Under the pieces are notes generated by a model. That model did no database searches and was not told the DNA's origin. It saw only the letters and a list, made by a program, of their open reading frames with translations. This document shows, piece after piece, positions 5,910 to 63,366 of a stretch of DNA of 64,000 nucleotides. Every line of letters begins with the position of its first letter. The stretch's first letter is position 1. This DNA is from a virus (Duplodnaviria; Heunggongvirae; Uroviricota; Caudoviricetes), in IMG/VR virus record IMGVR_UViG_3300045988_147321, one strand, 5' to 3'. Both the position numbers and the translations under genes were made by a program.

Positions 5910-5916
5910 TAAATTT
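5900..5916 (+). promoter_or_regulatory. C1 operator, perfect 17/17 match, overlapping the dmt stop codon
   Basis: ATTGCTCTAATAAATTT; followed by an inverted operator-like half (AAATTTATTAGTGTAAT, about 5910-5926). Confidence 0.55.
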
Positions 5917-6581
5917 ATTAGTGTAATATCGCCCCAATGAATCGTGATTTATAGAGCGATTTAGCTGTTAGCCGCGACAGGCGCGGCGGTAAGCATGGCT
6001 GGGCCTAGTCCTCCCAGACAAACCACCGAGTTGCCAGGTTGACCATGCGCCTAAGTGGCAACGCCGAAGTGCGTTACGAGCTTCCAGTTTGCCCATCTTC
6101 GGGTGGGCGTTTTTTCAGGGTTTTCGTCATGGTTAGCGACTTTGCGGCGGTTTAGAAACTGACCATTAAAGTAAATGCAAACGATGATCTGATGATGGTA
6201 GCGGCCTAAGAAACCAGATGCCACGGGGTATGAGTCGTCCCCCGTCAAAAAAATCGACCGCAGAGTGTCCCCGTCTGTGTATTAGGGAACGGGGAGGCAC
6301 AACAGGTAAGGGCGCTGGTGTGATTAACCAGATGAACGAGAAGGGGCCATCTGTTGGTCAGCGTCCTTTCCTGTTGCGTTTTCTTTTCAGCGTAACAGCG
6401 GTGCTTAACAGCACTTTGGGTACAGTTCCACGAATTTACGGGTATATCCCGTCATGCTGAAGGCGCTAATCACGCTGGAAGCCAGGGTTGTGCATCCCCT
6501 GTTACCGAATTGCAGCCAGGGCGCGGTGCGCCGAAAAGCATACGGAGGTGGAAGCCCTCGCCGGAGACGTACCCGGCAAGT

Positions 6582-26283: not shown

Positions 26284-26347
26284 GCTGGCCTGAAGCATTC
26301 ACCACGGTAGGAATTGTGATGGCGGCAGCACTGGGTTTGTATTCAAT

Positions 26348-26599
26348 TTGTCGCTGGTGGTAACGATGGGAAAAATAACTTTTGTAGTCGAATTTGAGGA
26401 TGGTAAAGAGCCACCTGTTAGCGCCAATCTTGATGTTGCTGGTGGCAGGCTTGTTTCGGTTCTATTTGGTGACTACCGAGATGACTTCTTCCAACCAGAA
26501 GAAGTTGATGTAGTGCGAGAGGCATTAAACGAGTTAAGTGTTGATAACGATGATGCTCATGCGGAAATCATCCAAAAAATGGAACTGCTAACTCACTAA
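26348..26599 (+). CDS. Small acidic hypothetical protein
   Basis: 83-aa ORF. Confidence 0.35.
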   Translation: MSLVVTMGKITFVVEFEDGKEPPVSANLDVAGGRLVSVLFGDYRDDFFQPEEVDVVREALNELSVDNDDAHAEIIQKMELLTH

Positions 26600-26647
26600 A
26601 TTATCAATTATGGTGCTATCACCTACGACACCGAGAGAAAATTTATA

Positions 26648-26770
26648 ATGTCAAAAGTAAATGTTTTGATTTTTTCAGCAATTGTTGGCTTTGGTTTTAC
26701 TGCCGGAGTGCAGATTTATATTACGTGGGAAAAAATCATCAACTACGCATGGAGTTGTTTTATTAAGTGA
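26648..26770 (+). CDS. Small hydrophobic peptide (40 aa, single transmembrane segment)
   Basis: MSKVNVLIFSAIVGFGFTAGVQIYITWEKIINYAWSCFIK read directly; AT-rich; not in the ORF track. Confidence 0.3.
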   Translation: MSKVNVLIFSAIVGFGFTAGVQIYITWEKIINYAWSCFIK

Positions 26771-26777
26771 GGTAAGT

Positions 26778-27071
26778 ATGTGGAGAGGTAATAGTCATGG
26801 CAAAAGCCAGATGATACTTACCGAATATAAGCTAGACCACAAAACCAATAAATCACGTTCAGTATATTTGCTCCGGCACAATAGCCGCGTAAGAAATACC
26901 GTGCTGGAACAAAATCTGACAGTTGAAATGGATAATTACGGGGGATTCAAGCCAACAATTTCACTTGATGATTTTCCTCGTGGTTTAAGCGAAAGAGAAG
27001 CAATGCTGAAATTAGCAGAATGGCTACAAAGATTAAGCATTGTTATTGAAGATAACTGGTCTGAACCTTAA
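26778..27071 (+). CDS. Hypothetical protein (97 aa)
   Basis: Start MWRGNSHGK after GAGGT; ORF track lists an extended 26682-27071. Confidence 0.35.
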   Translation: MWRGNSHGKSQMILTEYKLDHKTNKSRSVYLLRHNSRVRNTVLEQNLTVEMDNYGGFKPTISLDDFPRGLSEREAMLKLAEWLQRLSIVIEDNWSEP

Positions 27072-27077
27072 ATTTAT

Positions 27078-27452
27078 ATGATGACACTAAAACATTTTCT
27101 TGACCGCCCATTATGGGCGGCAGCCGCAGGCTATGACTTTAATTATATGGATTGCATGTCTTATACCGCCAATGCATACGACTATTCCTTCAGTCTGCTG
27201 CTTAATTCTTTAAGAATATTGCCGCAAACAGAAGTTGGAGAGATTCATTTATGGCTATTGGGCTTTATCGCGGCTGGAGTTGGTATTGCTGTATGGCCTT
27301 TTATTTTCTGGCTGGTGGCTGTTGTAGTGTGGTTTAAGTGCAAGACGTACCGGAGAAAGTATTTCTTAGGTGATGGAATGACTGATATTGCCAAAATGAA
27401 CATTGAAAAATGGACTAAGGAATGTGAAAAGAAATGGCGCAAAAAGAAATGA
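27078..27452 (+). CDS. Membrane protein with a two-segment hydrophobic core and a basic C-terminus
   Basis: 124 aa; LWLLGFIAAGVGIAVWPFIFWLVAVVVWF. Confidence 0.4.
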   Translation: MMTLKHFLDRPLWAAAAGYDFNYMDCMSYTANAYDYSFSLLLNSLRILPQTEVGEIHLWLLGFIAAGVGIAVWPFIFWLVAVVVWFKCKTYRRKYFLGDGMTDIAKMNIEKWTKECEKKWRKKK

Positions 27453-28084
27453 CCAGAATCACTGAAGAGCGTATATTAGAGATTATTTCCCGTATCGAAA
27501 TGTATGGTCACGGTGCTGGATATACGGCAGATGAAGTATTGGAAATAGCCCAGCAGATGCTGGCCTTGAGACAAAAAGAGCAACATGAAAGTAATACGTG
27601 TAGATTGAATTTTGAGCAGTGGCTGGAACAGCAACGCGCGAAAATCGATGTGGACTGCGGTTGTGTGTCCACTGAAACATTCATGCACTGGCTGCGGGTA
27701 GCTTACGAGGCTGGCAACTATCCGGATATTCCGGATAGTTCGGTGCCAGCGCCAGGAAAGGGCGTCACCGGTGAACGTATCCGCATTAAGCCGCATGTTT
27801 ATCGCGAACTGGTTAACCGTCTCCACGATACAGCGATCAAGTGTGCTGGCACCCAGCAATTACGAGAAAGAATTAGCCGTGTTTTGGGCGACGTTATTAC
27901 ACCAGATCATCATAAACAAGCCGAGAAAAGTGACCTGGAAAGGTGTCACCTTGAGGCGGCATTAAACATTAAGCCGGGGCATACGCTTGGCATTATTGAT
28001 GCACTATTGGTTCATAAGATGGCCAGGGCTTTATTGCCGCTGGTGGCTGAAAAGCATGAGGTGGACCATGCCAACGAAAGCTGA
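27434..28084 (+). CDS. Hypothetical protein
   Basis: 216-aa ORF. Confidence 0.4.
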   Translation: MAQKEMTRITEERILEIISRIEMYGHGAGYTADEVLEIAQQMLALRQKEQHESNTCRLNFEQWLEQQRAKIDVDCGCVSTETFMHWLRVAYEAGNYPDIPDSSVPAPGKGVTGERIRIKPHVYRELVNRLHDTAIKCAGTQQLRERISRVLGDVITPDHHKQAEKSDLERCHLEAALNIKPGHTLGIIDALLVHKMARALLPLVAEKHEVDHANES

Positions 28085-35703: not shown

Positions 35704-35913
35704 TTATTGTGAGTCTGGCTGGTTAGTGGCCATGAGATATTCGATTGTGTCAGTGAGATCATCCAGGTCGTCTTGGGTGATGCGGTACTCCTGATTGGAT
35801 ATCTTTGAGTAGTGTTCAGCAATGGCGCGGGCAGCGTCGGTTTCGGCGGGGTCTACAGATAAAGCGTTAGAGCAATGTCTAACGTCGTCGATGGTTGGTG
35901 GAATGAAAGCCAT
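35704..35913 (-). CDS. coi: C1 inactivator
   Basis: 69-aa ORF directly upstream of c1 on the same strand; size and position match P1 Coi. Confidence 0.6.
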   Translation of the reverse strand: MAFIPPTIDDVRHCSNALSVDPAETDAARAIAEHYSKISNQEYRITQDDLDDLTDTIEYLMATNQPDSQ

Positions 35914-36151
35914 AATTATGCCTCACTGTATTGACAACACAGAGCCTGAAGCTCTGACCTACTGTTTCACCCATGATCCATGCTGGGGTAATCTAACAAC
36001 ATTGCGCTGTGTGTAAGATGAGCAATGCATAGCTGTAATGCCGTTGTATAAGGTTTCCCTGTTTGCTCATTTCCTTCTGAGCCGCTCTACAACGCTGAAG
36101 ACACATTAAATAGTGAATCCAAAGTCGTATTACGAAACGGCGGCAAAACTA

Positions 36152-36168
36152 TAATTTATTAGAGCAAT
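36152..36168 (-). promoter_or_regulatory. C1 operator-like 17-mer (inverted)
   Basis: Reverse complement reads ATTGCTCTAATAAATTA, 16/17. Confidence 0.5.
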
Positions 36169-36234
36169 TGTCAAACAACTATGAAAAACAATCCAGTTTT
36201 TGGCTGGTGGAGTGGGATTTTTCTCTCAAAATTT

Positions 36235-36251
36235 ATTGCTCTAATAATTCT
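36235..36251 (+). promoter_or_regulatory. C1 operator-like 17-mer upstream of lox
   Basis: ATTGCTCTAATAATTCT, 15/17. Confidence 0.45.
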
Positions 36252-36294
36252 TGATTTTTATGCGCAGCTGGACGTAAACTCCTCTTCAGACCTA

Positions 36295-36328
36295 ATAACT
36301 TCGTATAGCATATATTATACGAAGTTAT
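36295..36328. other. lox recombination site (loxP-like, spacer variant)
   Basis: ATAACTTCGTATA-GCATATAT-TATACGAAGTTAT: perfect 13-bp inverted arms; spacer differs at one base from the canonical GCATACAT as I recall it. Confidence 0.85.
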
Positions 36329-36517
36329 CTTAAGGGTTATTGAACATGATCAATTTACCTGTAAATCCATACAGTTCAATACCTTATCAGGTCAAATAGT
36401 GATCACTTGATCATTTGATCAAGGTTGCGCTACGTAAAATCTGCGAAATGTTGGCAGTGTTAGTGCTCCAGATTTCGCGTAGCGCACTTAGCACCACCAA
36501 TCAATCAGAGGTGAAAA

Positions 36518-36739
36518 ATGGGATATTCAGCTGCTAAAGTGTCCACTCATCTTGAGCTTGAGAAAAACCGTGGTTACTGGCGGGCAAAAGGGTTTGATCG
36601 TGATAGTTGCCAACTGTCATTATCGCGCGGTGAAGAGAAAATAGAACGCACGCGCGGTCGCTGGCGTTTCTATGACGAGAACCATAAACAGGTAAAGGCA
36701 GAGCCGATCCTGTACACTTTACTTAAAACCATTATCTGA
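36518..36739 (+). CDS. cra: Small protein between lox and cre
   Basis: 73-aa ORF with GAGGTGA Shine-Dalgarno. Confidence 0.5.
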   Translation: MGYSAAKVSTHLELEKNRGYWRAKGFDRDSCQLSLSRGEEKIERTRGRWRFYDENHKQVKAEPILYTLLKTII

Positions 36740-36746
36740 GTGTTAA

Positions 36747-37778
36747 ATGTCCAATTTACTGACCGTACACCAAAATTTGCCTGCATTACCGGTCGATGCA
36801 ACGAGTGATGAGGTTCGCAAGAACCTGATGGACATGTTCAGGGATCGCCAGGCGTTTTCTGAGCATACCTGGAAAATGCTTCTGTCCGTTTGCCGGTCGT
36901 GGGCGGCATGGTGCAAGTTGAATAACCGGAAATGGTTTCCCGCAGAACCTGAAGATGTTCGCGATTATCTTCTATATCTTCAGGCGCGCGGTCTGGCAGT
37001 AAAAACTATCCAGCAACATTTGGGCCAGCTAAACATGCTTCATCGTCGGTCCGGGCTGCCACGACCAAGTGACAGCAATGCTGTTTCACTGGTCATGCGG
37101 CGGATTCGAAAAGAAAACGTTGATGCCGGTGAACGTGCAAAACAGGCATTGGCGTTCGAACGCACTGATTTCGACCAGGTTCGTTCACTCATGGAAAATA
37201 GCGATCGCTGCCAGGATATACGTAATCTGGCATTTCTTGGGATTGCTTATAATACCCTGCTACGTATAGCAGAAATTGCCAGGATCAGGGTTAAAGATAT
37301 CTCACGTACTGACGGTGGGAGAATGTTAATCCATATTGGCAGAACGAAAACGCTGGTTAGCACCGCAGGTGTAGAGAAGGCACTTAGCCTGGGGGTAACT
37401 AAACTGGTCGAGCGATGGATTTCTGTCTCTGGTGTAGCTGATGATCCGAATAACTACCTGTTTTGCCGGGTCAGAAAAAATGGTGTTGCCGCGCCATCTG
37501 CCACCAGCCAGCTATCAACTCGCGCCCTGGAAGGGATTTTTGAAGCAACTCATCGATTGATTTACGGCGCTAAGGATGACTCTGGTCAGAGATACCTGGC
37601 CTGGTCTGGACACAGTGCCCGTGTCGGAGCAGCGCGAGATATGGCCCGCGCTGGAGTTTCAATACCGGAGATCATGCAAGCTGGTGGCTGGACCAATGTA
37701 AATATTGTCATGAACTATATCCGTAACCTGGATAGTGAAACAGGGGCAATGGTGCGCCTGCTGGAAGATGGCAATTAG
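36747..37778 (+). CDS. cre: Cre tyrosine recombinase
   Basis: 343 aa, MSNLLTVHQNLPALPVDATSDEVRKNLMDMF...; essentially the familiar Cre sequence; C-terminus reads LEDGN. Confidence 0.95.
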   Translation: MSNLLTVHQNLPALPVDATSDEVRKNLMDMFRDRQAFSEHTWKMLLSVCRSWAAWCKLNNRKWFPAEPEDVRDYLLYLQARGLAVKTIQQHLGQLNMLHRRSGLPRPSDSNAVSLVMRRIRKENVDAGERAKQALAFERTDFDQVRSLMENSDRCQDIRNLAFLGIAYNTLLRIAEIARIRVKDISRTDGGRMLIHIGRTKTLVSTAGVEKALSLGVTKLVERWISVSGVADDPNNYLFCRVRKNGVAAPSATSQLSTRALEGIFEATHRLIYGAKDDSGQRYLAWSGHSARVGAARDMARAGVSIPEIMQAGGWTNVNIVMNYIRNLDSETGAMVRLLEDGN

Positions 37779-38272: not shown

Positions 38273-38289
38273 ATTGCTCTAATTGATTG
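38273..38289 (+). promoter_or_regulatory. C1 operator-like 17-mer upstream of ref
   Basis: ATTGCTCTAATTGATTG, 13/17, with a second weaker overlapping copy. Confidence 0.35.
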
Positions 38290-38387
38290 CTATAATTTGG
38301 CCGCAGTTTTTGTCAACTACGAAGACGTTGCCATTACTTCACTCCTTGACATCATTGGCGGCCATTAGGCCGCCTTTTTTTTGCCAT

Positions 38388-38948
38388 ATGAAAACAATCG
38401 AACAAAAACTTGAACAGCGCCGCGAGTGGCAGAAGGCAGCCAGAGAACGAGCGATCGCTCGGCAACGGGAAAAGTTGGCTGACCCCGCCTGGCGAGAATC
38501 GCAATATCAGAAAATGCGGGATTCTATCGACCGCCGTATCGCTAAACAGAAAGAGCGCCCACCAGCCAGCAAAACGCGGAAAAGTGCGGTAAAAATAAAA
38601 TCTCGTGGCTTGAAGGGGCGAACACCGACGGAGGAGGAACAGACTATCGCCAATGCTCTTGGCACTCTCCCCTGCATTGCCTGCTACATGCATGGAGTAA
38701 TATCTGAAGAGGTGTCTCTGCACCATATCTCCGGTCGTACCGCGCCGGGTTGTCACAAAAAGCAATTGCCCCTTTGCAGATGGCACCACCAGCATGCAGC
38801 ACCGGCTGAAGTAAGAGAAAAATACCCCTGGCTGGTCCCTGTTCATGCCGATGGCGTGGTAGGAGGCAAGAAAGAATTCACCTTGTTGAACAAGTCAGAG
38901 ATGGAGTTGCTGGCTGACGCCTATGAAATGGCAAACATCATGCACTAA
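38388..38948 (+). CDS. ref: Recombination enhancement function, HNH-type endonuclease
   Basis: 186 aa from MKTIEQKLEQRREWQ; Cys/His HNH-like C-terminal domain. Confidence 0.75.
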   Translation: MKTIEQKLEQRREWQKAARERAIARQREKLADPAWRESQYQKMRDSIDRRIAKQKERPPASKTRKSAVKIKSRGLKGRTPTEEEQTIANALGTLPCIACYMHGVISEEVSLHHISGRTAPGCHKKQLPLCRWHHQHAAPAEVREKYPWLVPVHADGVVGGKKEFTLLNKSEMELLADAYEMANIMH

Positions 38949-39136
38949 TAAATATATTATTTTTAATCTTAAATGATTGACAACTGACAAGTGACTTGAG
39001 TCAGAATCATCACACGCCCGGTACGGATGGATCCCTTTTCAAATATTCCATGGACGGCACAGTCTGAGTACCGGGCGCTACCTTCAGTTGTATTGCTAAG
39101 CCGCCGCTGGTGGCTTTTCTTTTTTGTAGGGGCGCT

Positions 39137-39778
39137 ATGGATAAGAAAATATGCGTTGTTTCGATGAGCGTCGGCAAACCGGCGTCAATGACTGCTGCAT
39201 GGATCAACAACGAGCTGATAATGGCTGAGCGGACCAGCTACCCTGAACGCCGCCGCGACATGGAACTCCAGCTGCTGCGCGAATTGCGAGAAAAAGAGGA
39301 AAAGGGTTTTATCGTGCTGGTGGAAGAGGAAAACAGCTTTATTACTGGTCGAGTTGGCCAGCGTGTAAGGTTGCGCGATCCCTTCATGAACGGCAGGCCG
39401 GTACTGATTGAAGCAATGCAGATTTACAAGGAGCTGGAACGCCAGAAAGCGATCAAGTTACCGCGCAAGGAATCCGGCAAATACATCCTCCACCAAAGCA
39501 TCTTCGATTCCGAACACGATAAAAAAGGCGATGAATTTTTCAACATCAACTGGAGCGAAATAACGACAGAGCATGTTCTGACGTTACTATGTTGCTTTGC
39601 GACGGAATACAACAACGTTGCCAGCGCAGACTACATCAGGGCAATGGCTGGAGAAGTTGAGGCACGCCAGGAACCATCGTTACTAAGCCCTCTGATTAAC
39701 ATAATTCGCGGAACCCAAACGCTGGCACAAAAACAGGTGCCTAAGGGAGTATTAACAGGAAAAGGAAATTATCTATAA
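39137..39778 (+). CDS. mat: Maturation-control protein homolog
   Basis: Start MDKKICVV (ORF track 39110); P1 mat position. Confidence 0.5.
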   Translation: MDKKICVVSMSVGKPASMTAAWINNELIMAERTSYPERRRDMELQLLRELREKEEKGFIVLVEEENSFITGRVGQRVRLRDPFMNGRPVLIEAMQIYKELERQKAIKLPRKESGKYILHQSIFDSEHDKKGDEFFNINWSEITTEHVLTLLCCFATEYNNVASADYIRAMAGEVEARQEPSLLSPLINIIRGTQTLAQKQVPKGVLTGKGNYL

Positions 39779-39834
39779 ACGTCAATGCATTAGGGTATAC
39801 TTCTCCGTAGAACTATAAGTAAATGGAGTAAGTA

Positions 39835-41139
39835 ATGAGCGAGTATATAGAAATTGCCTATGCAGCAGCTACACATAGGCTGTGCTTTCTTACAGGCACT
39901 GGATTTTCAAAGGCTGTTTCTGATGATAAAGCCCCAAGTTGGCAATCTTTATTGGAGCAACTGTGCGGTTTATTGAAGGATGGTGACTCACTCAAAGAGG
40001 AATTATTTCCTGATGGAAAAGCAAAAGACCTTAGCCTTGAAGAGGCTGCTCAGGTTATTGCACTAAAATTTATACTTTCGGGGAAAAATATTTACCAGGA
40101 GATTGAGAAAATCATAGCCTCAATCGAACTTGATCCATCAATTGAATATATTCAAGACTTTTTCAAAGAAAACACATTTAAAGTAATTACGACAAATTAT
40201 GACAAGTTAGCAGAAAAACTGGCTGGAGAGAATCGAACGTGTACAATCACCCCCGGCCTGCCAATTCCAAAATATAATTGTGAGGTTAAAGTCTACCATG
40301 TTCACGGCTCTATAGACTCCCCATCAGATATGGTTGTTACTAGCGAGGATTATTTCAGATTTATAAATGGTAATTCTTACTTTTCAAATAAACTAAGCAC
40401 AGTTCTACATGAAAACACTATTGTTATTCTTGGCTATTCTCTAAGTGACGCGAACCTCAAGGCGATTATAAATGAATATAAGGTATTTTCACGGGACAAC
40501 GTAATGTCCTCCAATATTTTCCTTATTTCCCGAGGAAAACTATTGCAACCTATTAAAGATTACTATTTTTCCTGCTTTGGGATTAGGGTTATAGATAAAA
40601 CAGAGGTGTCTGATTTCTTTAGAAAACTTAACAAGAAAATTCCAGAAGCAAAAAAAATAAAAGACAAATTGAGGCACTCAATCAAATCGGTAATAAAAAA
40701 CGGAAGAGAGTATAAAATAGAGTTCTTGAAGTTAGAGGATTCTTTTTATCATATCATTTCCTCCATTTCATCATCTGGATATAGCTGGAATGATGAAAAG
40801 GTATTAAATGTTTTTTGTGATATAATAGATAAAAAAATAGATCTTACTAAAGAGTCTGGCGCATGGGAGCAGTATGAACACCTGGCAAAATGGCTTATTT
40901 ATTTCGGTAGTTTATTTGAAGTAAAAGGAACCAACTTTGAGAAAAAATACATACATGCGGTTGAACACTCAATGACTTATATGAATAAACCTTACGAAAC
41001 AGGCTACTCATGGCGAGCATATCTAGCCTGGAAAACAAAATGGCCTTCACTGACAGCATCTAACCGCTCTCTTATTAAGAGTAAGATGGAAGAAATCCCG
41101 CTACAACAGATTCACGATATTATATCTAAGTTTATATAG
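39835..41139 (+). CDS. SIR2-domain protein (ThsA/DSR-like NADase fold) with an uncharacterised alpha-helical C-terminal domain
   Basis: 434 aa; GTGFS (21-25), TTNYD (119-123), HVHGS (155-159), ILGYSLSD (198-205) match SIR2_2-type motifs; gene is visibly AT-rich compared with its flanks. Confidence 0.7.
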   Translation: MSEYIEIAYAAATHRLCFLTGTGFSKAVSDDKAPSWQSLLEQLCGLLKDGDSLKEELFPDGKAKDLSLEEAAQVIALKFILSGKNIYQEIEKIIASIELDPSIEYIQDFFKENTFKVITTNYDKLAEKLAGENRTCTITPGLPIPKYNCEVKVYHVHGSIDSPSDMVVTSEDYFRFINGNSYFSNKLSTVLHENTIVILGYSLSDANLKAIINEYKVFSRDNVMSSNIFLISRGKLLQPIKDYYFSCFGIRVIDKTEVSDFFRKLNKKIPEAKKIKDKLRHSIKSVIKNGREYKIEFLKLEDSFYHIISSISSSGYSWNDEKVLNVFCDIIDKKIDLTKESGAWEQYEHLAKWLIYFGSLFEVKGTNFEKKYIHAVEHSMTYMNKPYETGYSWRAYLAWKTKWPSLTASNRSLIKSKMEEIPLQQIHDIISKFI

Positions 41140-41148
41140 TATATTTAT

Positions 41149-41175
41149 CTCCGGCCTAATCTCCCTAGGCCGGAG
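41149..41175. terminator. Bidirectional hairpin terminator
   Basis: CTCCGGCC-taatctcccta-GGCCGGAG between convergent genes. Confidence 0.5.
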
Positions 41176-41180
41176 AGTTC

Positions 41181-41429
41181 TTAATCAGCATTCAGGAGCA
41201 ATGCGTTATCTATGATGATCTGCTCCCATTCCTCGAATGCCCGGTCGCGGACGCCCTGGGGAACGCTGTTAGTTTTGAAATCGACGACCGTCCGCCATTT
41301 TCCGTCCGGACGGTACATGCGCAGAGCTTTACTTCCCCCTTCCCTGCGCACCTCAACGTTATGCTTGTCAGCAAACTCTTGTAATGCTCGTAGCGTCCCA
41401 TGCTTTACTGTGTAGTATCGCTTTTTCAA
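41181..41429 (-). CDS. lxc: Small protein downstream of ulx
   Basis: 82-aa ORF; assigned by synteny. Confidence 0.4.
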   Translation of the reverse strand: MKKRYYTVKHGTLRALQEFADKHNVEVRREGGSKALRMYRPDGKWRTVVDFKTNSVPQGVRDRAFEEWEQIIIDNALLLNAD

Positions 41430-41866
41430 GTTTTCTCTCCAGCCTGTGCCAAGGCTTCAACTTCCAAATCGTAAGACTCAAACTCATAGTCCTGGTCGTC
41501 AACTTCTTCAGGCACTGGCAGTAAATGCCAGGCTGAGTATATCTGACCATTATCAAAACGCTCCTGGCTGTAGAGCGTCGCGGCTATGAGTGTTAGCGCC
41601 GGGCGGTCATAACGGTAAATTTTGCGAACGTCACGGTCAACGAGACGACCGAAATTACCATAACCGCGCTCCAGTAATAATTTTTTAATTTCCGGCCAGT
41701 ATGGACCATAGCTGCGGTACAGGCGGGGATTTTTCAGTAATCGCCCGCGTAGCCCTGACAGGAAGAAATCAACGTATTCGTCTTCTGTCTTTCCTAACAA
41801 CGCTGTACGGAGTACCGCCTCAAGATATGTTTTATTCGGTTTTATTGTATCAGATAGTGTGGCCAT
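41426..41866 (-). CDS. ulx: Protein upstream of lxc, co-operonic with darB
   Basis: 146-aa ORF; assigned by synteny. Confidence 0.4.
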   Translation of the reverse strand: MATLSDTIKPNKTYLEAVLRTALLGKTEDEYVDFFLSGLRGRLLKNPRLYRSYGPYWPEIKKLLLERGYGNFGRLVDRDVRKIYRYDRPALTLIAATLYSQERFDNGQIYSAWHLLPVPEEVDDQDYEFESYDLEVEALAQAGEKT

Positions 41867-41899: not shown

Positions 41900-44800
41900 T
41901 TATGCGTATTGTTGGATGACGGCCAGAACGTCCGCCACGTTGTGTTTTGTCTCGATAATCCACCAGTTACCCGGGAAATCGCTGTTCTTCGCCTTCGCTG
42001 GCAGCCAGCGAGCGCCGAATTTCGCCTTGATTGCGTCTTTCGCACGGAAAAGAACGCCTTTCATGCCTGAGGCTTCCTGAAGCCCAAATACCTCGCCAGC
42101 GGCGAATTTTGGTGCGTACATCATCTTCAGGTCGGCGGTGGATACGCGATAATTCAGACCAAGAGACTGAGCTATGCTGGTGGCATCACCCTGTATTGAT
42201 GATAACTCTTCTTGTTTCTCGTTTCTGGCGGCAATCTCTTCCTCCGTGATGTTGCCAAGGGCTAGGTTTATCCGATCAGCGTCGGCCTGTTTCTCTTCAT
42301 CGGTGCGCCCGGCAAGAACCGTGTTAATTCTCTGCAATATCTCCACATGATTCTTGCGCATGCTGAGCAATTCCGGCGTAACCTCGTTAAGATCCACCAG
42401 CCCAAGGATGGCAAGGTCGGAAAACATTGATACCAGGTTGTAGGTCATGCGATAGCTGAGTTGACCATAGGCTGATGGCAACTTCACCGCATCCATTTGA
42501 TAGGCATCCATAAATTTAGAGCCGTCGTTTACGACATCCGCTATTGCAGGTGTGATTTTCCCTGTGGTGGCGGCCTCCCTGATTGCTGTTACCCACGATT
42601 GAGTCAGCGCGGCGACTGCATGATTCAGATTGGCTTCCCGTTCTGCTGCGATGCGCGCGCTTGCTGCGTCCATTGCCTGCTCGATCTCGGCTTTATTGCT
42701 GTAAATGCCAATGGTGCCAAACTGTGCTGTGGTGATCTCATAATCTGACGCCCGGAACTCATTGGTACCGAAAATGGCATTGGTGACTTCAAGTTCAGAA
42801 TCCCCGTTACGAGTAGCCCCCTGGCTTGTTTTTTCCGGCATTCTGGCGATCGCATCCGCTATTTTCTCCTGAATTGCTTCAGGGGATAGCGTATCTCCGT
42901 ATGACGCGATTACATCGCCATAATTGGAGCCAAACAGTTCAACCAGGAATGTTTCTGCCGAACGGATCTGGCGGTTATTCCCTTCCGACATCATACCAAG
43001 CACCCATTTTGCAATTGACGACTTCAGCGCGCCGTCACGGCGATCCGGGTAAACCGCATGCTTCAGTGGGTCCGTATAGGTACCAACAAAATCGATGCTA
43101 TAGCCTGACTCTGTAGTCTGAACGCCGTATGAGTCAGTGATTTTGATCATGCCGCGCTGCTGGAAACGGTAGAAATCGTCACAGGAAATGATGTCGTTAA
43201 TCCCGGCGATGGAGACGCCACCACTGATTTTCTGCATAACAGCATCTTCATCGGGAGTTACATCAACCTGTTTATCCAGCGTCTTCACATCCCAGTTACC
43301 CGATTTGGTGCCTTTGAAGGTAAAGATGATCTCCACGTCTGCGCGCTGGCTGTCGAAGTCCAGCGACTTAATGCGAACGATATCACCGGCACAATCATAG
43401 TATTGGCCTACACGCCATGAGCGATCGCCGATAACAAGGAACTCATTCGCATGGTTAACCAGATCAGGATCAACATCCAGAATGCCTTTATTTATTGCAT
43501 CCTCCACCAGCGGGCGCAGGCGTTTGATATCCGTCGCGGCCTTCTGAGTACGGTTCAATAATTTCTCATAGCGGGAGATGGCCTGAGAGATATTAGCCTT
43601 GCGCTGAATGGCGCTTTTCAACGACGCGCGATACTGTGCTAACAACATACGGTCTGTGTGATGGACGCTACCCCAGCGGGCTTTCCAGTCTGCGTTATCA
43701 GCTGCTTTGGCCATTACCGCCTGTTTGAATTTAGCTACCTCGGCGGTGGTCTTTTCAAGTTCCGCTTTGCTTCGCTCCAATTCAGCGGTAAGTACCTCCA
43801 CATCCTCACCAGCTGCGTGCTGCGCCTTGATGTAGTTCTGAAGGTCGATAGTAGCCTGTTCTTTCTGGCGAGCGCGTTTCGCAGCTTTCGCCTTATCCAT
43901 TTGAACCTGCATCATTGCCAGACGTTCGCCGTCATCCTTCGCGGTATACATCTGCATTTCGATCATGTCATTGGCGTCGGCGTTCTCCATTTCTGACTTA
44001 TCTGAACGGAGGATATCGGAGATCCAGCCTGCTTTACGCTTCAGCGTCTTCAGTCGGTATTCATCGAAAGACCCCTTGCCGCAGTAGTAGTGAACGCGAA
44101 CGCTTGCACGGTTGGAGCCAACTCGTGCACCGCGACCGTTACGTTGTGCGATGCTGGCTGGTGTCCATGGCAACGTCAGATGATGGATGTCAGTCGTTCC
44201 TCGATGCAGGTTGATACCCACCTCTGCCTTTTTGTTGCAGATGATGATCGGAGTCCGGCCCTCCTGGAAGTCGGCTGCAATCTTTTCCAGACCGCCCAAC
44301 GACATTTCATTTTGCTGCGCGATATAGGCGTCATACAGAGCCATTTGCTCGTTGTATTTCGCTATCTGTGCATCTGTTGGTTCATCCGGTAGCTCTTTCG
44401 GCGGTTTAACCGCTTTCAGTTTCTTACCGGTTTTACCTGCCTCGGCAACCGTCTGAGCATTCAGGATCCCCACCTTTGAAGGTTCAAGGTTTAGAGCATT
44501 GCAGATAATGCGCTTGAGCTTCTGGTGCTGCGTTTTTTCATCGGTGAAGATGATTTGCTTACCTTCCGGGAAAAACTCCTTCAGCGTGGCGATCAGCTTC
44601 GCGTATTTCGGCGTAACGGGGTGAGTTACGGTCTGTTCGTCAATGCCAAACCTGGCCAGGCGCTTATTCACTTCCTGCTCGAACGCTTCCGGAACCTGCA
44701 ACTGAATAAACTCGCCCTTATCTATCAGGGAGTATTGCGATTGCTGCGTGATTGAATCATCACTGTCGTCGTCTTCGCTGGTGGCTTGTTTAGGCAAACT

Positions 44801-47800
44801 GTCCGCCAGCTGCTGCACCGCATCGGCGTACTCCGGCAGGAAACGATAGGTGATCCGGCGATAGTACAGGTCCATGTCAGTACATACGCGGTCCATATCC
44901 CTGATTATTGAGAAGATCGGACGGGCTTTCTCGTGCTCAATCACGCCGTCTTCATTGACCGAGGTCGTTACGCCATTGTTGGCTTTGGCCGCCGCTTCCG
45001 CCTGCTGACGCAATTCTTCATACGCCGCCAGTTGTTCTTCAGTAAGTGGTGCATCCTGCTGGTGTTCGTCCAGCTCCGGGATCTCCACGGTATCCTTAAC
45101 GTCTTCCGCCGTTTTAAGCGTTACCCAGCGATGGAATATACCGCGCAGCGCATCAAGGTTTTCAAAGCCCACCAGCGCCATTTTTTCTTCAACTTCACCG
45201 CTAATTTTCTGTACCGTTTCCAGCCTGGTCTTGCCGAAGAATTTAACGAAGTCATCAGGACCGTAGATCCCCATGTTCTGCCAGTATTCCTTCGGCAGAA
45301 CATGAGAAAGCATGTTGTATGCATCGATCGGGGTGTTAACGACTGGCGTTGCAGTCAGGAGAACCGGCCCGCGCCCGCCATTCTTTTTCATCAGGTACGC
45401 GTTTTTAATTGCCATATCTCGCGCCGATTGCGCCACCGCGCTGGTGGGCAGATAGGCCAGTTGTGACGCTTCGCGACCATTTTTATAGCTATTGCGGTAG
45501 TTGTGACCTTCGTCGGCGATCACACTATCGAAGCCCATATCCTCAAAGTACGGATACTTCTCTGCTTTTTCGGTGCCGGTATCTGAATACTCCGACAATA
45601 CCCGGCGACGCGCGGCCTCTTTGCGGTGGGAGTCGGAGTCCATTGCGCTGGCTACGCGCCCGGCTGCAACGAAGTCATAAAGCATATCCTGTGCATGCTC
45701 ATCTACGGTGTCATCACGTAGCGGAATGCGGGCGTATTGTTCTTTGGTAAACACGACTGCACGGTAATTTGAGTGCGGGATCGCGTTCATCCGCGCCGTG
45801 ATAGTGGCTTCATCTGCCAGCTTAAGAGCATCGCGCATAACTGGAGTGCCATCAGTACCAAGAACAGGTTTACCGTTCTCATTGAGCACCGGCACCTGGC
45901 GAATCTGATCGCCATCCATCAGCACATCAAGACCGACGAACAGGTAGTTACTGAATGCCTCTTCACTCAGGAACTCTTTTGCTTCGTAATACCAGTTTTC
46001 CAGCACTGATTTAGGCACTACATACGCAGTACGGGTGGAGCGACCGTTCTCATAGTTGAACGCCTCAAGCGCCAGCGCGGTCGTCGTTTTACCCAGCCCG
46101 GTGCCGAAGCCCAGGATGCCGCGCCCATCTTCGGACAGTCGTCTCACCTCGCTATTCTGGTAATCAAATGGCTGGCGCTTACCGCTTAATCCCTTCACCC
46201 CAAGCGGATCGCCAGAGTGTTCATACGGGATATTGCTATTGAACACATCGTTGTATTTGGCAACCAGCTCATCGTAGCGATCGTGCGTCTTGATCCACTT
46301 ATTGAACTGGTCCTCAAGCAGTGCCATCTGCTCGCGGTAGCCGTTCGCCGTCGCGCTATCTTTGCCACCGATACGCGCACCATTGAGATACTTTTCCAGC
46401 TGTGCCGGGAACCCGGTCGCGTTTTCACCCGATTTACGGTCCCACTCGTAGCGGATCTCGCCTGTTTCTTTATCCTTGCGCTGGACGACACCGTATCGGT
46501 GCCCGACGAACAGACCATCACCACCGTGATAGGTGTCAGAAACCATTTCGTCGCCTTCCAGCTGCACTGACTGCACATAGCGCAGATCCGGATAGCCGTT
46601 TTCCTGCAAAAATTCCAGAATGACGGAGCGGTCGAACCAACGGCTATTGAGCTTAAAGCGGATATTCTCTGCTGGCGTCTTGATGCGCTTCTCTTCGATC
46701 GCTGCCAGCTGATTAAGGACGTTGTTCTTTACTGGACCGTCGGGGAGTGTGGCAAGGAATTCCTGTTTTGGTGCCACTATCTCGTTAATGTCGCCGCTGG
46801 TGGCGCGGGCGAACGGAACAATCCCGCCATACGGTGAAACCGCAATGCCAGGGGTGCTGGCCAATAAATTAAGCAACTCGTCATCACTGGCTGGCAGTTC
46901 GCCGGTAAACGCAAGGCGGAAATCATCGAGCTGGATTGGATCGCGAGTGAGATCACTGTAGAGATAACGCAGGGTGTCCTGATAGCTGGTGGAGTCATAA
47001 CTGGCGCTGGAATCATGCGTAACCAGTTTTCCTGTCAGCTCGTCAGAAATAGTGCCATCCAGCTTAATTGCACCACGGAAAGCAAACCAGGCGCGCGCAC
47101 CGCTCCCCGATAATTTCGCTATCGGACCGCGACCGGGGTTACCAAAACGGTCAATCTCTGCCTGCAAACGGGATACCAGAGAAAGGCGCTGCTGTTCGAT
47201 TTGTTCAGCACTATGCCCGGCGGCCTTCATGTCCTGATATTCAATTAACATCCGGCCAATCATCGCCCCGCGATACAAGCGTTCACGGTATTTTTCAGGC
47301 TGGCTGTTAATCCAGTCCACCAGCTGCACCATATCGTCGCTGATTGATGTGGTGTACTTATCGCGGACATTTGCCATCTGGGTAAATGTCATACCGAGAC
47401 GGCCTTCTGTTGTAGTCAGGTTTCGCTGAAGAGCCTCCCAGCTGTCCGCGCCATAACTGGCAACATCAATCTTCAGCTCCTTCCCTGCATCAGATTCAAT
47501 CCAGCGACCACCAGCATATTTTTGCCATACGCCATTAATCAGGCGCATTTCCCCTTCATCAACAACATCTGCGGTCGGTGACGGTTCAGCCATATCGAGC
47601 AAAGACCAGTCGATACGACTTTCGAAACGATGAATCAGCTTCGCTTTAAGAGCCTGGTTATCAATCTGCCCGTCGGCACGAACCTCAATACGCCCCTGGA
47701 AGCCCTTTTCCTGGGTACCATGAACAAACCGGCGGCCGTCCTTTTCAAACCACTTGCCAGAAATAAACGTTGGCCAAAGCACATTTGCCGATTCAAGAGT

Positions 47801-48667
47801 GCTTTCATCCACCAGGGGGATTTTCTCAGCCATCTCTGCCGGATGTTTGCGCATCAGCACCACATCTACGACCGTACTGGTCCCGTTTGCGTCAAAAGTA
47901 CCGGTAGGCAAGCGGTGAGCGCCAAGAAATTCAGCTTTACGGGATAGGCGCAGGCGCAACCGCTTCATGTTTGAACCTGAAACAATGGACGGCGGCACAA
48001 TCACACACATGAATCCGCCTGGCTTTATCTTGTCCAGCATGCGGAGCATGAAGTAAGACCCCATGTCCGTTTCTTCTGCGTAAGGCTTATCGATGTTGCG
48101 TGTGTTATCACGACCGCCGAACGGAACGTTACCCACAACATGGTCGAATGAATCGTTAGGCGTGCTTACAGCCAGTTGTTCGAACGGGGAAATCTGTACG
48201 CTGTCTTCCGGATGTAACAGCTGGTTTATACGACCGGAAACACTGCTGATCTCAGTCGCGGTCATCACCGTACCAACCGGTTTTGTCTCATTAAAAACGC
48301 CGGTGCCCGCCGATGGTTCCAGAGTGTTACCTACGTCCGCACCGTAGAGCTTCATGATCTCCCAGACACCTTCAGCGATCGGCTTTGGTGTGTAATATTC
48401 GGAGACGGACCCGCCAATGCCGCCTTCACCAGTGTACCCGGCCAGGATCTGGCGCTGTTCATCTGTCAGTGTCGCGCCGTCCACCAGCGAATTAAGCAAA
48501 TCTATCGCCTTCTGATTCGCCTCCCGGCGCAGTCGGTCATAGCTTTTGCCTTCCACCTTTTCCACGCCGTATTTAATCGGCGCTCGGTGAGATGTTATTG
48601 CCCTAATGTATTTCAATATTTCGCTGACACTTGAACAGCGAAACACACCCATAGATAGCTTGTTCAT
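41900..48667 (-). CDS. darB: Giant antirestriction protein with N6-adenine methyltransferase and DExH helicase domains
   Basis: 2255 aa; MTase motif GNVPFGG, helicase Walker A GFGTGLGKTT and DEGH box; size matches P1 DarB. Confidence 0.85.
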   Translation of the reverse strand: MNKLSMGVFRCSSVSEILKYIRAITSHRAPIKYGVEKVEGKSYDRLRREANQKAIDLLNSLVDGATLTDEQRQILAGYTGEGGIGGSVSEYYTPKPIAEGVWEIMKLYGADVGNTLEPSAGTGVFNETKPVGTVMTATEISSVSGRINQLLHPEDSVQISPFEQLAVSTPNDSFDHVVGNVPFGGRDNTRNIDKPYAEETDMGSYFMLRMLDKIKPGGFMCVIVPPSIVSGSNMKRLRLRLSRKAEFLGAHRLPTGTFDANGTSTVVDVVLMRKHPAEMAEKIPLVDESTLESANVLWPTFISGKWFEKDGRRFVHGTQEKGFQGRIEVRADGQIDNQALKAKLIHRFESRIDWSLLDMAEPSPTADVVDEGEMRLINGVWQKYAGGRWIESDAGKELKIDVASYGADSWEALQRNLTTTEGRLGMTFTQMANVRDKYTTSISDDMVQLVDWINSQPEKYRERLYRGAMIGRMLIEYQDMKAAGHSAEQIEQQRLSLVSRLQAEIDRFGNPGRGPIAKLSGSGARAWFAFRGAIKLDGTISDELTGKLVTHDSSASYDSTSYQDTLRYLYSDLTRDPIQLDDFRLAFTGELPASDDELLNLLASTPGIAVSPYGGIVPFARATSGDINEIVAPKQEFLATLPDGPVKNNVLNQLAAIEEKRIKTPAENIRFKLNSRWFDRSVILEFLQENGYPDLRYVQSVQLEGDEMVSDTYHGGDGLFVGHRYGVVQRKDKETGEIRYEWDRKSGENATGFPAQLEKYLNGARIGGKDSATANGYREQMALLEDQFNKWIKTHDRYDELVAKYNDVFNSNIPYEHSGDPLGVKGLSGKRQPFDYQNSEVRRLSEDGRGILGFGTGLGKTTTALALEAFNYENGRSTRTAYVVPKSVLENWYYEAKEFLSEEAFSNYLFVGLDVLMDGDQIRQVPVLNENGKPVLGTDGTPVMRDALKLADEATITARMNAIPHSNYRAVVFTKEQYARIPLRDDTVDEHAQDMLYDFVAAGRVASAMDSDSHRKEAARRRVLSEYSDTGTEKAEKYPYFEDMGFDSVIADEGHNYRNSYKNGREASQLAYLPTSAVAQSARDMAIKNAYLMKKNGGRGPVLLTATPVVNTPIDAYNMLSHVLPKEYWQNMGIYGPDDFVKFFGKTRLETVQKISGEVEEKMALVGFENLDALRGIFHRWVTLKTAEDVKDTVEIPELDEHQQDAPLTEEQLAAYEELRQQAEAAAKANNGVTTSVNEDGVIEHEKARPIFSIIRDMDRVCTDMDLYYRRITYRFLPEYADAVQQLADSLPKQATSEDDDSDDSITQQSQYSLIDKGEFIQLQVPEAFEQEVNKRLARFGIDEQTVTHPVTPKYAKLIATLKEFFPEGKQIIFTDEKTQHQKLKRIICNALNLEPSKVGILNAQTVAEAGKTGKKLKAVKPPKELPDEPTDAQIAKYNEQMALYDAYIAQQNEMSLGGLEKIAADFQEGRTPIIICNKKAEVGINLHRGTTDIHHLTLPWTPASIAQRNGRGARVGSNRASVRVHYYCGKGSFDEYRLKTLKRKAGWISDILRSDKSEMENADANDMIEMQMYTAKDDGERLAMMQVQMDKAKAAKRARQKEQATIDLQNYIKAQHAAGEDVEVLTAELERSKAELEKTTAEVAKFKQAVMAKAADNADWKARWGSVHHTDRMLLAQYRASLKSAIQRKANISQAISRYEKLLNRTQKAATDIKRLRPLVEDAINKGILDVDPDLVNHANEFLVIGDRSWRVGQYYDCAGDIVRIKSLDFDSQRADVEIIFTFKGTKSGNWDVKTLDKQVDVTPDEDAVMQKISGGVSIAGINDIISCDDFYRFQQRGMIKITDSYGVQTTESGYSIDFVGTYTDPLKHAVYPDRRDGALKSSIAKWVLGMMSEGNNRQIRSAETFLVELFGSNYGDVIASYGDTLSPEAIQEKIADAIARMPEKTSQGATRNGDSELEVTNAIFGTNEFRASDYEITTAQFGTIGIYSNKAEIEQAMDAASARIAAEREANLNHAVAALTQSWVTAIREAATTGKITPAIADVVNDGSKFMDAYQMDAVKLPSAYGQLSYRMTYNLVSMFSDLAILGLVDLNEVTPELLSMRKNHVEILQRINTVLAGRTDEEKQADADRINLALGNITEEEIAARNEKQEELSSIQGDATSIAQSLGLNYRVSTADLKMMYAPKFAAGEVFGLQEASGMKGVLFRAKDAIKAKFGARWLPAKAKNSDFPGNWWIIETKHNVADVLAVIQQYA

Positions 48668-61694: not shown

Positions 61695-62020
61695 TTCCCG
61701 CCTCCCTTTTTCACCAAACTTGTAAGAACATTCAGAATGCTATCGATATTCACTCGTTTCATCCCTGAAATCACCTCATGACCGTTATTGCTGGCTATCG
61801 TTACCATTAAGTACGTAATTGATAACTCCCAGCCCTCGTGTTGCCCCAATAGGTACGCCACCGCGCCAGCTGTCACTGCAACAAAGATCTCCGTAACCAA
61901 TCCCAACAAATTGCCAGACTGGCGACCGTCTCGGACATCCATCAGGAACGTGCCTATCCCACCAATTACTGAAAGCAGGAGCGCAATAGCAACTGGAGCT
62001 AATTCCTGTGTGTCAAGCAC
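61691..62020 (-). CDS. lydA: Holin
   Basis: 109 aa with three hydrophobic segments and a charged C-terminus. Confidence 0.55.
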   Translation of the reverse strand: MLDTQELAPVAIALLLSVIGGIGTFLMDVRDGRQSGNLLGLVTEIFVAVTAGAVAYLLGQHEGWELSITYLMVTIASNNGHEVISGMKRVNIDSILNVLTSLVKKGGGK

Positions 62021-62094
62021 AAGTTCCCTCCTACGTTGTCAGGAGGTAATGGTATGCAAAGTAACTTCTCAACCGGTTATGTTGCATAAGAGAC

Positions 62095-62358
62095 TTACCT
62101 ATTCAACCGACTTTTGGAACCTTCAATAATAAGCCTGCTATTGGCGCTGAAAATAAGAACCATGCAGCTCTGAAGGCTTTCATTCATGTCCTTATATTCC
62201 GCGAGATACATGCCAATAAAGCCAGCAAGTACGGCGGAAATACATTCGGCCAGCAATTTCTTGCATGAAGACTCGTAACGGTTTTCACATAGCCCACTCA
62301 AATACGAATACACCCCACCAAGAAGGGATAACATCACGATATGTACATAAAATGTCAT
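62095..62358 (-). CDS. Small two-segment membrane protein (holin-like)
   Basis: 87-aa ORF; possibly P1 lydC. Confidence 0.35.
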   Translation of the reverse strand: MTFYVHIVMLSLLGGVYSYLSGLCENRYESSCKKLLAECISAVLAGFIGMYLAEYKDMNESLQSCMVLIFSANSRLIIEGSKSRLNR

Positions 62359-62485
62359 TTTTTACCTATACAACAGTAAGTTGAACAACATTTGAGAACG
62401 GTATGCACTTTGTGATTTCCACACACACTGGTTTTGTTAATTAAAACCTGTAGCTTGCAATAAATAACGATAGTGGGCAGAAAAT

Positions 62486-62671
62486 ATGCTAATAGGCTAT
62501 GTACGCATATAGACAAATGAACAAAACACAGCTATGCAGTGAAAAGCACTTGAAAGCGCAGGATGTGAGCTAATTTTTGCGAATAAGGCGAGCAGCAAAA
62601 AAGCTGGGCACCCTGGGTTAAAAAAGGTTCTGCGTATGCTTTCCAGAGGTGATACCCTAGTCTCGGACTAG
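62486..62671 (+). pseudogene. Remnant of a serine DNA invertase gene (Cin/Hin/Gin family), disrupted by in-frame stops and truncated
   Basis: Reads MLIGYVRI*TNEQNTAMQ*KALESAGCELIFANKASSKKAGHPGLKKVLRMLSRGDTLV against Cin MQIGYIRVSTNDQNTDLQRNALNCAGCELIFEDK...; TAG replaces the catalytic Ser codon, TGA replaces an Arg codon. Confidence 0.6.
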
Positions 62672-62793
62672 GGACAACATTTCGAGAACAGTTTTCATTA
62701 GCGGTCAGCAGGCGCTAGATACATCGAATTGATGTGCCGCGCGATAAATGTACCTATTCTATCAAGATAAATTACACCGACGCGGCATTAGAA

Positions 62794-63366
62794 TTACAGC
62801 TCAGATTGAGTTTGGCGCTTCTCTACAGGATGATAACGATAAATCGTCGATACACCGATATCGTAAATAATTGCCAACTGTTTCCTGCTGTAGCCATTTT
62901 CGATCAACCTCGCTATTTGCTCATGTTGTTCTTTTGTCAACTTCGGGCGACGTCCGCCAATGCGTCCCTGTTCGCGTGCAGCTGCCAGTCCGGCCAGTGT
63001 TCTCTCAACAATTAATTCACGTTCCATTTCTGCTAAAGCACCCATGACATGAAAAAAGAAACGCCCCATGGGTGTTGATGTGTCAATACTGTCTGTCAGA
63101 CTACGGAAATTAACACCTTTTTCCCGCAACTCCTCTATAAGCGTGATAAGGTGTTTCATACTTCTGCCAAGCCTATCCAGCTTCCAGACAACCAGCGTAT
63201 CTCCTTCTGATAACGTTCTGAGCAGCTTTTTCAAGCCTGGTCTGGCTGACTTTGTTCCGCTTATTTTATCTTCAAAAATCAGTTCACATCCTGCGCAGTT
63301 CAGTGCATTTCTTTGTAAATCTGTGTTTTGGTCATTTGTTGACACACGAATGTAGCCAATTTGCAT
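62794..63366 (-). CDS. cin: Serine DNA invertase
   Basis: 190 aa from MQIGYIRVSTNDQ; catalytic Ser and C-terminal HTH; adjacent to tail-fibre cassettes. Confidence 0.85.
   Translation of the reverse strand: MQIGYIRVSTNDQNTDLQRNALNCAGCELIFEDKISGTKSARPGLKKLLRTLSEGDTLVVWKLDRLGRSMKHLITLIEELREKGVNFRSLTDSIDTSTPMGRFFFHVMGALAEMERELIVERTLAGLAAAREQGRIGGRRPKLTKEQHEQIARLIENGYSRKQLAIIYDIGVSTIYRYHPVEKRQTQSEL

Follow-up and report, generated by a model that had tools for sequence, protein, structure and literature searches.

The 64,000-nt stretch of DNA analysed here (IMG/VR record IMGVR_UViG_3300045988_147321, referred to below as the window) is that of a P1-like phage-plasmid, and it carries, between the backbone genes mat and lxc, a single SIR2-family gene for a protein of 434 amino acids (aa). 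By analogy with characterised systems, we consider it probable that this gene is a self-contained, one-protein defence against phages (or against mobile elements) that is exchanged as cargo of the mat-lxc slot and acts through abortive infection by depleting nicotinamide adenine dinucleotide (NAD). The protein joins an N-terminal SIR2 domain with intact catalytic motifs to an all-helical C-terminal domain; the gene has no conserved partner and lies in a hotspot of variable cargo. A role in defence is supported because the closest relatives in sequence and structure, DSR2, ThsA and KomC, are all NAD-depleting defence effectors. It is further supported because the same slot holds the EcoP1I restriction-modification (RM) genes res and mod in P1 and CapRelSJ46 in SJ46, and because homologues are found in defence islands, an integron and prophages.

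A foreign cassette between mat and lxc

The slot, its two flanking backbone genes and its contents are arranged as follows.

39137-39778, plus strand: mat (maturation control), the backbone gene to the left of the slot, taken from the open reading frame (ORF) list and annotated as such in identical plasmids and phages
39779-39834, plus strand: cassette-specific leader of 56 nt, with a GGAG Shine-Dalgarno sequence and a weak -10-like TATACT at 39796-39801
39835-41139 (ATG to stop), plus strand: SIR2-family gene, 434 aa, WP_000006034.1 in identical plasmids
39835-40596, plus strand: SIR2_2 domain (residues 1-254; Pfam PF13289), with the GTGFS NAD-binding loop, Asn121 and His157
40597-41136, plus strand: C-terminal alpha-solenoid (residues 255-434), private to the family and proposed as a sensor or regulatory module
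41148-41176, plus strand: cassette-specific, terminator-like hairpin between the convergent SIR2 gene and lxc
41181-41429, minus strand: lxc (modulator of C1), the backbone gene to the right of the slot

Both edges of the cassette were located by junction alignments with other P1-like elements, which took in the empty slot of RCS47, the slot of SJ46 and two other variants. On the left, the elements cease to be homologous at the stop codon of mat (39778), and on the right they become so again exactly at that of lxc (41181); thus, 39779-41180 is precisely a foreign cassette. It consists of three parts: the 56-nt leader, whose Shine-Dalgarno sequence lies 7 nt 5' of the ATG, the ORF and the hairpin, with 7 G-C pairs in its 11-bp stem and a weak T tract after it. 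Each alternative cargo brings its own, different hairpin to the position before the lxc stop codon. The hairpin was also considered as the lxc terminator of the P1 backbone, and this was ruled out because it differs with each cargo.

An earlier reading of the sequence (the original prediction) had described a low-GC (guanine plus cytosine) gene that ends in a hairpin, sits in the slot used by EcoP1I in P1 and looks like a recently swapped defence cargo. The hairpin is there, and a windowed calculation bears out the composition: the GC content of the SIR2 ORF is 35.3%, compared to 48.4% for the window, 46.6% for the 5 kb to its left and 51.7% for the 5 kb to its right. Among all 1305-bp intervals (mean 48.5%, standard deviation 3.0%) the ORF has the lowest value, about 4.4 standard deviations under the mean, and the only intervals equally low in GC (0.24%) each overlap the SIR2 gene. 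Further low-GC patches lie at 26301-27600 (minimum 36.5%), where there are several small ORFs of 83-129 aa without obvious function, at 35801-36700 (39.2%) and at 62001-62900 (40.0%).

The position in the slot agrees with the P1 genome (NC_005856), in which the order is mat (2716-3468), res (3544-6456), mod and lxc (9750-9998), with EcoP1I res and mod filling the mat-lxc interval on the opposite strand. This res-mod region of P1-like phage-plasmids is already known as the low-GC “variable region 1” (PMC9603915). The SIR2 gene is a cargo of that region: it fills exactly the interval from the stop codon of mat to that of lxc, and sister elements have unrelated cargos joined to the backbone at the same points. 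Of the 711 matching PLSDB records we sampled 60, in which at least ten different cargos occupy the slot, among them SIR2 alleles a and b and RelA/SpoT, YaaC, PIN, DUF2971, KilAC/Icd, GNAT and EAL-domain genes, the last of which some records list next to a helicase-related protein. Other slots are empty, contain an unannotated filler of ∼1.2 kb (MH422554), or hold large cargos that split the flanks. The RelA/SpoT cargo of SJ46 is CapRelSJ46 itself, identical to PDB 7ZTB, a validated one-protein defence in which recognition of a phage capsid protein by the C-terminal domain sets the N-terminal toxin free (PMC9712102). The P1 slot of EcoP1I and CapRelSJ46 is in this respect a general hotspot for defence cargo; most of its other occupants are uncharacterised and may be further defence candidates.

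The SIR2 gene itself is widespread and uniform. An identical copy is present in 65 PLSDB plasmids and 69 of the 5,426 complete E. coli genomes, in every case in the mat-lxc slot, with 99.9-100% identity across plasmids of E. coli, E. fergusonii, Klebsiella and Salmonella; we count this near-identity across four named host groups as a sign of selection. A second allele, b (WP_023156640.1), occupies the same slot in other plasmids and has 59% protein identity to the first. Over 56 nt, the leaders of alleles a and b are 98% identical, whereas the coding sequences share only 45-78% of their nucleotides. Because the leader is shared and the coding sequences have diverged, the breakpoint of allele exchange lies at the start codon and not at the mat stop. 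Neither the empty slot (RCS47) nor the CapRel slot (SJ46) has the leader, and it does not precede homologues outside P1-like elements. We take the presence of two alleles in one slot, together with the variable C-terminal domain, as an arms-race signature that counts in favour of a defence role. The gene's status as cargo stands, whereas “recently” is unproven for a gene that is ∼100% identical in dozens of plasmids and has a second allele at 59% identity. Most P1-like elements lack the SIR2 gene, and their slot has unrelated cargo or nothing.

A defence-type SIR2 domain and its C-terminal partner domain

All four of the SIR2-type motifs from which the original prediction recognised the N-terminal domain are present: GTGFS at residues 21-25, TTNYD at 119-123, HVHGS at 155-159 and ILGYSLSD at 198-205. 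Pfam SIR2_2 (PF13289) matches residues 117-245 with 83.8 bits against a cut-off of 24.5 (expectation value, E, of 1.6e-23). In an alignment of 43 homologues, whose members are 52-60% identical to the query, the invariant residues comprise G21, G23 and S25; T119, T120, N121, Y122 and D123; H155, H157, G158 and S159; and G200 to S202, D205 and N207. His157 aligns with H171 of DSR2, the residue mutated in deposited inactive DSR2 structures. The canonical sirtuin family PF02146, that of the CobB-type housekeeping deacylases, gave no match at E ≤ 1 in the Pfam scan, and the protein matched no NCBIfam deacylase model; the profile searches place it in SIR2_2 and not in a non-defence sirtuin family. 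Judged from its sequence, the protein is a member of the SIR2_2 superfamily, of the defence type and not a housekeeping sirtuin.

Sequence matches in the PDB are to ThsA (6LHX, 7UXT and 8BTO; E 3e-9 to 5e-7), DSR2 and KomC. An AlphaFold2 model of the protein, built with the 43 homologues, has a predicted local distance difference test score (pLDDT) of 84 and a predicted template modelling score (pTM) of 0.81, and its best structural matches in Foldseek are the SIR2 domains of DSR2, ThsA and KomC (E 1e-8 to 1e-11). Among the PADLOC profiles, PDC-S25 ranks first (5e-24, over the SIR2 core only), followed by ThsA (7e-18), with LmuA and Dsr2 weaker. By analogy with DSR2, ThsA and CapRelSJ46, the SIR2 domain most likely hydrolyses NAD+.

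The original prediction could not place the helical C-terminal domain and noted that the SLOG domain of ThsA is missing; both statements hold. In the model, the C-terminal ∼180 aa are all-helical (pLDDT 83-84) and form an alpha-solenoid, which on comparison is not a SLOG, CARF, SAVED or Macro nucleotide-sensor fold. No Pfam family reaches threshold over these 180 aa, and structural comparison of the solenoid yielded no specific relative. A profile of the domain, run against 1.84 billion representative proteins, returned 97 matches; the full-length ones are all 406-480 aa long with the domain at ∼255-435, and SIR2_2 precedes it in each of the 10 distant matches checked. Fusion of the domain to other effectors, the expected form of modularity, was rejected, as the exhaustive profile search shows it solely behind SIR2_2. 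Thus, the C-terminal domain belongs exclusively to this family, and the two-domain architecture does not vary. The sequence of the C-terminal domain varies more than that of the catalytic core, with a mean pairwise identity of 55% compared to 79%; the domain contains invariant tryptophans (W344, W353, W393, W399 and W403) and a conserved aromatic patch (residues 341-360). We propose that it serves as a sensor or regulatory module.

Autonomy, proposed mechanism and competing explanations

Full-length homologues with 55-61% identity occur in Vibrio, Halomonas, Pseudoalteromonas, Marinobacter, Pseudomonas, Stutzerimonas, Pantoea, Klebsiella, Delftia and Paracidovorax, and their surroundings differ widely. 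In V. cholerae, a homologue with 61% identity (contig ABMMEU010000015.1) is a one-gene integron cassette with a V. cholerae repeat (VCR/attC) immediately after it. On E. coli chromosomes, a 56%-identical homologue lies beside the integrase gene where a lambdoid prophage ends. The Marinobacter homologue is part of a mobile element, where its immediate neighbours are type I RM and GmrSD genes, that of Halomonas lies in an island with HNH, HSDR_N, DUF87 (HerA-like), FRG and STAND-TPR genes, and that of Stutzerimonas has a NERD-UvrD helicase gene on one side and a DUF2971 gene on the other. None of the phage records in INPHARED carries the gene (megablast and tblastn), the only SIR2 matches there being distant cores in Streptococcus and Mycolicibacterium phages, whereas IMG/VR prophages do contain homologues. 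These adjoin baseplate spike, CI-type repressor, Prim-Pol primase, Mu F-like and tail genes, and SIR2 homologues are lone cargo in other, unrelated prophage types. The IMG/VR homologues are often flanked by genes on the opposite strand, and the SIR2 gene is therefore monocistronic.

Some of these loci have further features. The VCR/attC-like repeat occurs seven times on the 8.4-kb V. cholerae contig, which marks it as a superintegron cassette array, and a neighbouring cassette encodes GmrSD_N. About 1.4 kb 3' of the Halomonas homologue lie a 401-aa gene without a Pfam match and then a 591-aa DUF87 gene; this pair (9700-12667 of the locus) resembles a SIR2-HerA-type system. DUF2971 genes adjoin SIR2 homologues in two unrelated loci and also occur alone as cargo of the P1 slot. 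The two SIR2-adjacent copies do not cluster by BLASTP, and the association may simply reflect shared residence in defence islands.

We clustered all genes within 3.5 kb of the SIR2 gene at 24 loci, which represent eight or more kinds of element or host, and no gene family was common to different element types. The upstream genes, compared all against all (Pseudoalteromonas, 207 aa; Halomonas, 179 aa; Marinobacter, 296 aa; and Mat of P1), have no similarity to each other. Since no neighbour family is shared across element types, the SIR2 gene is, as far as its genomic contexts indicate, an autonomous single-gene unit, and it has moved as a single gene between Gamma- and Betaproteobacteria. In the window, the genes on either side all belong to the P1 backbone:

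36747-37778: cre, P1 backbone on the upstream side (ORF list), followed by c8
38283-38948: ref, P1 backbone on the upstream side (ORF list)
38939-39007, plus strand: mat control region, by position the counterpart of P1 Omat, Pmat and LPmat, with a putative role here
41426-41866, minus strand: ulx, backbone
41900-48667, minus strand: darB, backbone

A TIR, HerA, Argonaute or STAND domain is lacking in all of these neighbours, mat and lxc included, in keeping with the earlier claim that no such partner is encoded nearby.

This autonomy bears directly on the best surviving alternative, which is that the protein is an effector that does not stand alone, namely a NADase whose activating signal (for instance a nucleotide second messenger bound by the C-terminal domain) or partner is specified by another locus, either of the host chromosome or of the element. 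ThsA, which is activated by a signal, is the strongest hidden Markov model match among characterised systems, and KomC is among the PDB sequence and fold matches; the aromatic patch at residues 341-360, with the invariant tryptophans, could be a ligand pocket; and a related single-gene SIR2 from P4, cloned alone, gave no validated defence. We nevertheless regard this explanation as unlikely, given the lack of a conserved neighbour family in the 24 loci and the existence of a one-gene integron cassette. A partner would have to be universal, since the gene moves singly between Gamma- and Betaproteobacteria, and a messenger would have to act on a solenoid that is none of the SLOG, CARF, SAVED or Macro folds.

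For a stand-alone defence, we envisage the following course of events. The SIR2 protein would be present at a low level in cells that carry the element and be kept inactive. On infection by a competing phage, it would recognise a trigger, most likely a phage protein and less likely a small molecule, probably through the variable, family-private C-terminal alpha-solenoid. Recognition would release or assemble the N-terminal SIR2 domain, which would then hydrolyse NAD+ by means of Asn121 and His157. The loss of NAD+ would stop both the infected cell and the phage before progeny are released, that is, it would cause abortive infection. The NADase activity, the C-terminal sensing, the trigger and the abortive outcome are modelled on DSR2, ThsA and CapRelSJ46, and expression in lysogens is presumed. 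The original proposal of a stand-alone, NAD-depleting abortive-infection gene is thus supported as a hypothesis. A stronger claim, plausible and held only tentatively, is that the protein is the founding member of an undescribed group of compact one-protein immune sensors, in which a Trp-rich solenoid gates a SIR2 NADase and directly recognises a phage component, and the two 59%-identical alleles that substitute for each other behind the shared leader would differ in trigger specificity. If so, the mat-lxc slot would be a hotspot for the discovery of defence systems comparable to those of P2 and P4.

Several points weigh against a defence role. A literature search found no experimental characterisation of the SIR2 protein, and the related P4 gene mentioned above (pFR88), tested against eight coliphages, is listed as “additional tested” and not as validated (Rousset et al. 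2022, PMC9122126 Table S2B). A survey of 846 P1-like elements with DefenseFinder 1.3 reported type III RM, dGTPase, PrrC and CapRel and no SIR2 system (bioRxiv 10.1101/2025.09.12.675607), which shows that the gene is uncatalogued, not that it defends. Expression raises a further difficulty. Consensus and relaxed scans gave no convincing sigma-70 promoter 5' of the SIR2 gene, the best candidate being TATACT with a -35 element matching at 3 of 6 positions. The gene lies 56 nt 3' of mat on the same strand, and in P1 mat is annotated as C1-repressed and as having a late promoter. The mat control region is 99% identical to P1 2614-2834, which contains Omat (2628-2645), Pmat (2666-2696) and the late promoter LPmat (2678-2696; NC_005856). 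Because the C1 operator and late promoter of mat are conserved and the gene's own promoter candidates are weak, the SIR2 gene could be silent in lysogens; read-through from the mat control region into it is possible.

Other features of this region were also noted. A promoter-like site on the minus strand within the ORF (40492-40465) was dismissed, since the 5 matches in the region are fewer than the 6.3 expected from shuffling. Between the conserved Pmat/LPmat region and the start codon of mat there is a terminator-like hairpin (39098-39116) with a T run after it. Relative to P1, a G run near 39128 differs by 1 bp (GGGG instead of GGGGG), which accounts for the annotation of Mat as 213 aa in P1-like plasmids and as 250 aa in NC_005856.

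The arrangement with mat lends itself to a second alternative, in which the gene serves the phage: co-transcribed with mat under C1 and late control, it would act in the lytic growth of P1 or when lysogeny is established, and its product might deacylate or ADP-ribosylate a host or phage protein, or might remodel NAD metabolism to the advantage of the phage. The gene has the same orientation as mat and follows it after 56 nt, no terminator separates the two, its own promoter candidates are weak, the region with the operator and late promoter of mat is conserved, and RefSeq also uses the name “SIR2 family NAD-dependent protein deacylase”. That name is generic, however (WP_000006034.1 is otherwise annotated only as “SIR2 family protein”, and PHROG 7567, to which the gene belongs, has no assigned function), and the domain is SIR2_2, with PF02146 unmatched. 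The P1 developmental programme does not include the gene, given that it is missing from most P1-like elements; homologues exist outside phages, in integron cassettes and chromosomal defence islands; and CapRelSJ46, a proven defence, has the same position and orientation. We therefore doubt a phage-serving role and place it next in order of probability.

Very unlikely, finally, is a role in selfish stabilisation or counter-defence, as a toxin that penalises loss of the plasmid-prophage or an NAD consumer that disables NAD-dependent host immunity or signalling directed against P1: addiction modules are common in low-copy plasmid prophages, a NADase is intrinsically toxic, and P1-like elements are reported to carry several anti-defence genes such as Dar and Tad2 (bioRxiv 10.1101/2025.09.12.675607), but no antitoxin-like small gene is conserved beside the SIR2 gene in any context, plasmid addiction is of no benefit to copies on chromosomes or in integrons, the phage's own host would suffer from a constitutive depletion of NAD, and the PHROGs, PADLOC and Pfam scans show no similarity to known anti-defence proteins.

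Much of the setting of the proposed one-protein defence is already known: the gene is common, annotated as SIR2 and located in a described variable region, and abortive infection by SIR2 NADases and defence hotspots in prophages are both established. What is probably new is a family of single SIR2 proteins, so far uncatalogued, that has a C-terminal domain of its own. If the gene does defend, ∼9% of the P1-like PLSDB plasmids that match the query region, many of them with mcr-1 or extended-spectrum beta-lactamase genes, would confer NAD-depletion immunity that PADLOC v2 and apparently DefenseFinder 1.3 miss, and this would bear on the prediction of host range for phage therapy in E. coli, Salmonella and Klebsiella. 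The protein would also be among the smallest to combine a sensor with SIR2, and far more tractable than the 1000-aa DSR proteins for the study of SIR2 gating. Its compactness, exclusive domain, allelic pair and hotspot neighbours make it a good experimental target.

Comparison with known systems

Among multi-gene systems, Kongming (KomC), SIR2-HerA and SPARSA share the SIR2_2 catalytic domain. They differ from the gene described here in needing KomA/KomB, HerA and a short Argonaute, respectively, none of which is encoded in the window or at the related loci. Lamassu-Sir2 and Avs5 differ likewise, as the LmuB SMC ATPase of the former and the STAND NTPase of the latter are absent from the cassette and its flanks, and the LmuA profile aligns to the SIR2 part only.

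ThsA is close to our protein in its SIR2 domain at the profile level and similar in size (∼475 aa). In contrast to ThsA, the protein has an alpha-solenoid in place of the SLOG (or Macro) domain for binding of the cADPR-isomer signal, and ThsA profiles align to residues 117-236 only. Thoeris also requires comparison at the locus level, where no ThsB/TIR gene lies near the SIR2 gene, either in the window or at the 23 other loci.

CapRelSJ46 is the nearest parallel in genomic position and design. It occupies the exact mat-lxc slot of a sister element in the same orientation, and it too has a toxic enzyme at the N terminus and, at the C terminus, a sensor for a phage protein (PMC9712102). However, its enzyme is a tRNA pyrophosphokinase of the RelA/SpoT type, unrelated in fold and chemistry, and the two proteins are analogous, not homologous.

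PDC-S25, the best PADLOC match and itself an unvalidated candidate system, is likewise a single SIR2_2 gene carried as cargo in an E. coli phage or satellite hotspot. The identity between the two is 25% and is confined to the SIR2 core, and the C-terminal regions are unrelated. Our protein matches only positions 127-283 of the PDC-S25 profile (517-528 positions), with 83 bits, whereas pFR88, a true PDC-S25 member with a truncated sequence, scores 285 bits over positions 10-342. This P4-hotspot single-gene SIR2 is PDC-S25 in PADLOC terms (4e-85), a link stated in neither of the two catalogue sources read. No catalogued defence system, single-gene systems included, matches the SIR2 protein over its full length.

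The closest likeness is to DSR2 and DSR1, defence-associated sirtuins that abort infection by depleting NAD. Like our protein, each is the product of one gene, with an N-terminal SIR2_2 domain that has the same Asn and His residues and an all-helical repeat region at the C terminus, and DSR2 is both the best structural match (Foldseek E 7e-11) and a sequence match. The DSR proteins are nonetheless ∼1000-1260 aa long with extended helical sensor regions, compared to 434 aa here; the NCBIfam scores are 30.6 bits for Dsr2 and 21.2 bits for Dsr1 against cut-offs of 1400; and only ∼100 residues of the SIR2 core align. The helical C terminus that they have in common is an architectural resemblance, not a sign of homology. 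By analogy, the SIR2 protein of the mat-lxc slot would work most like a miniature DSR2, yet in size, profile score and C-terminal region it stands apart from the DSR proteins.

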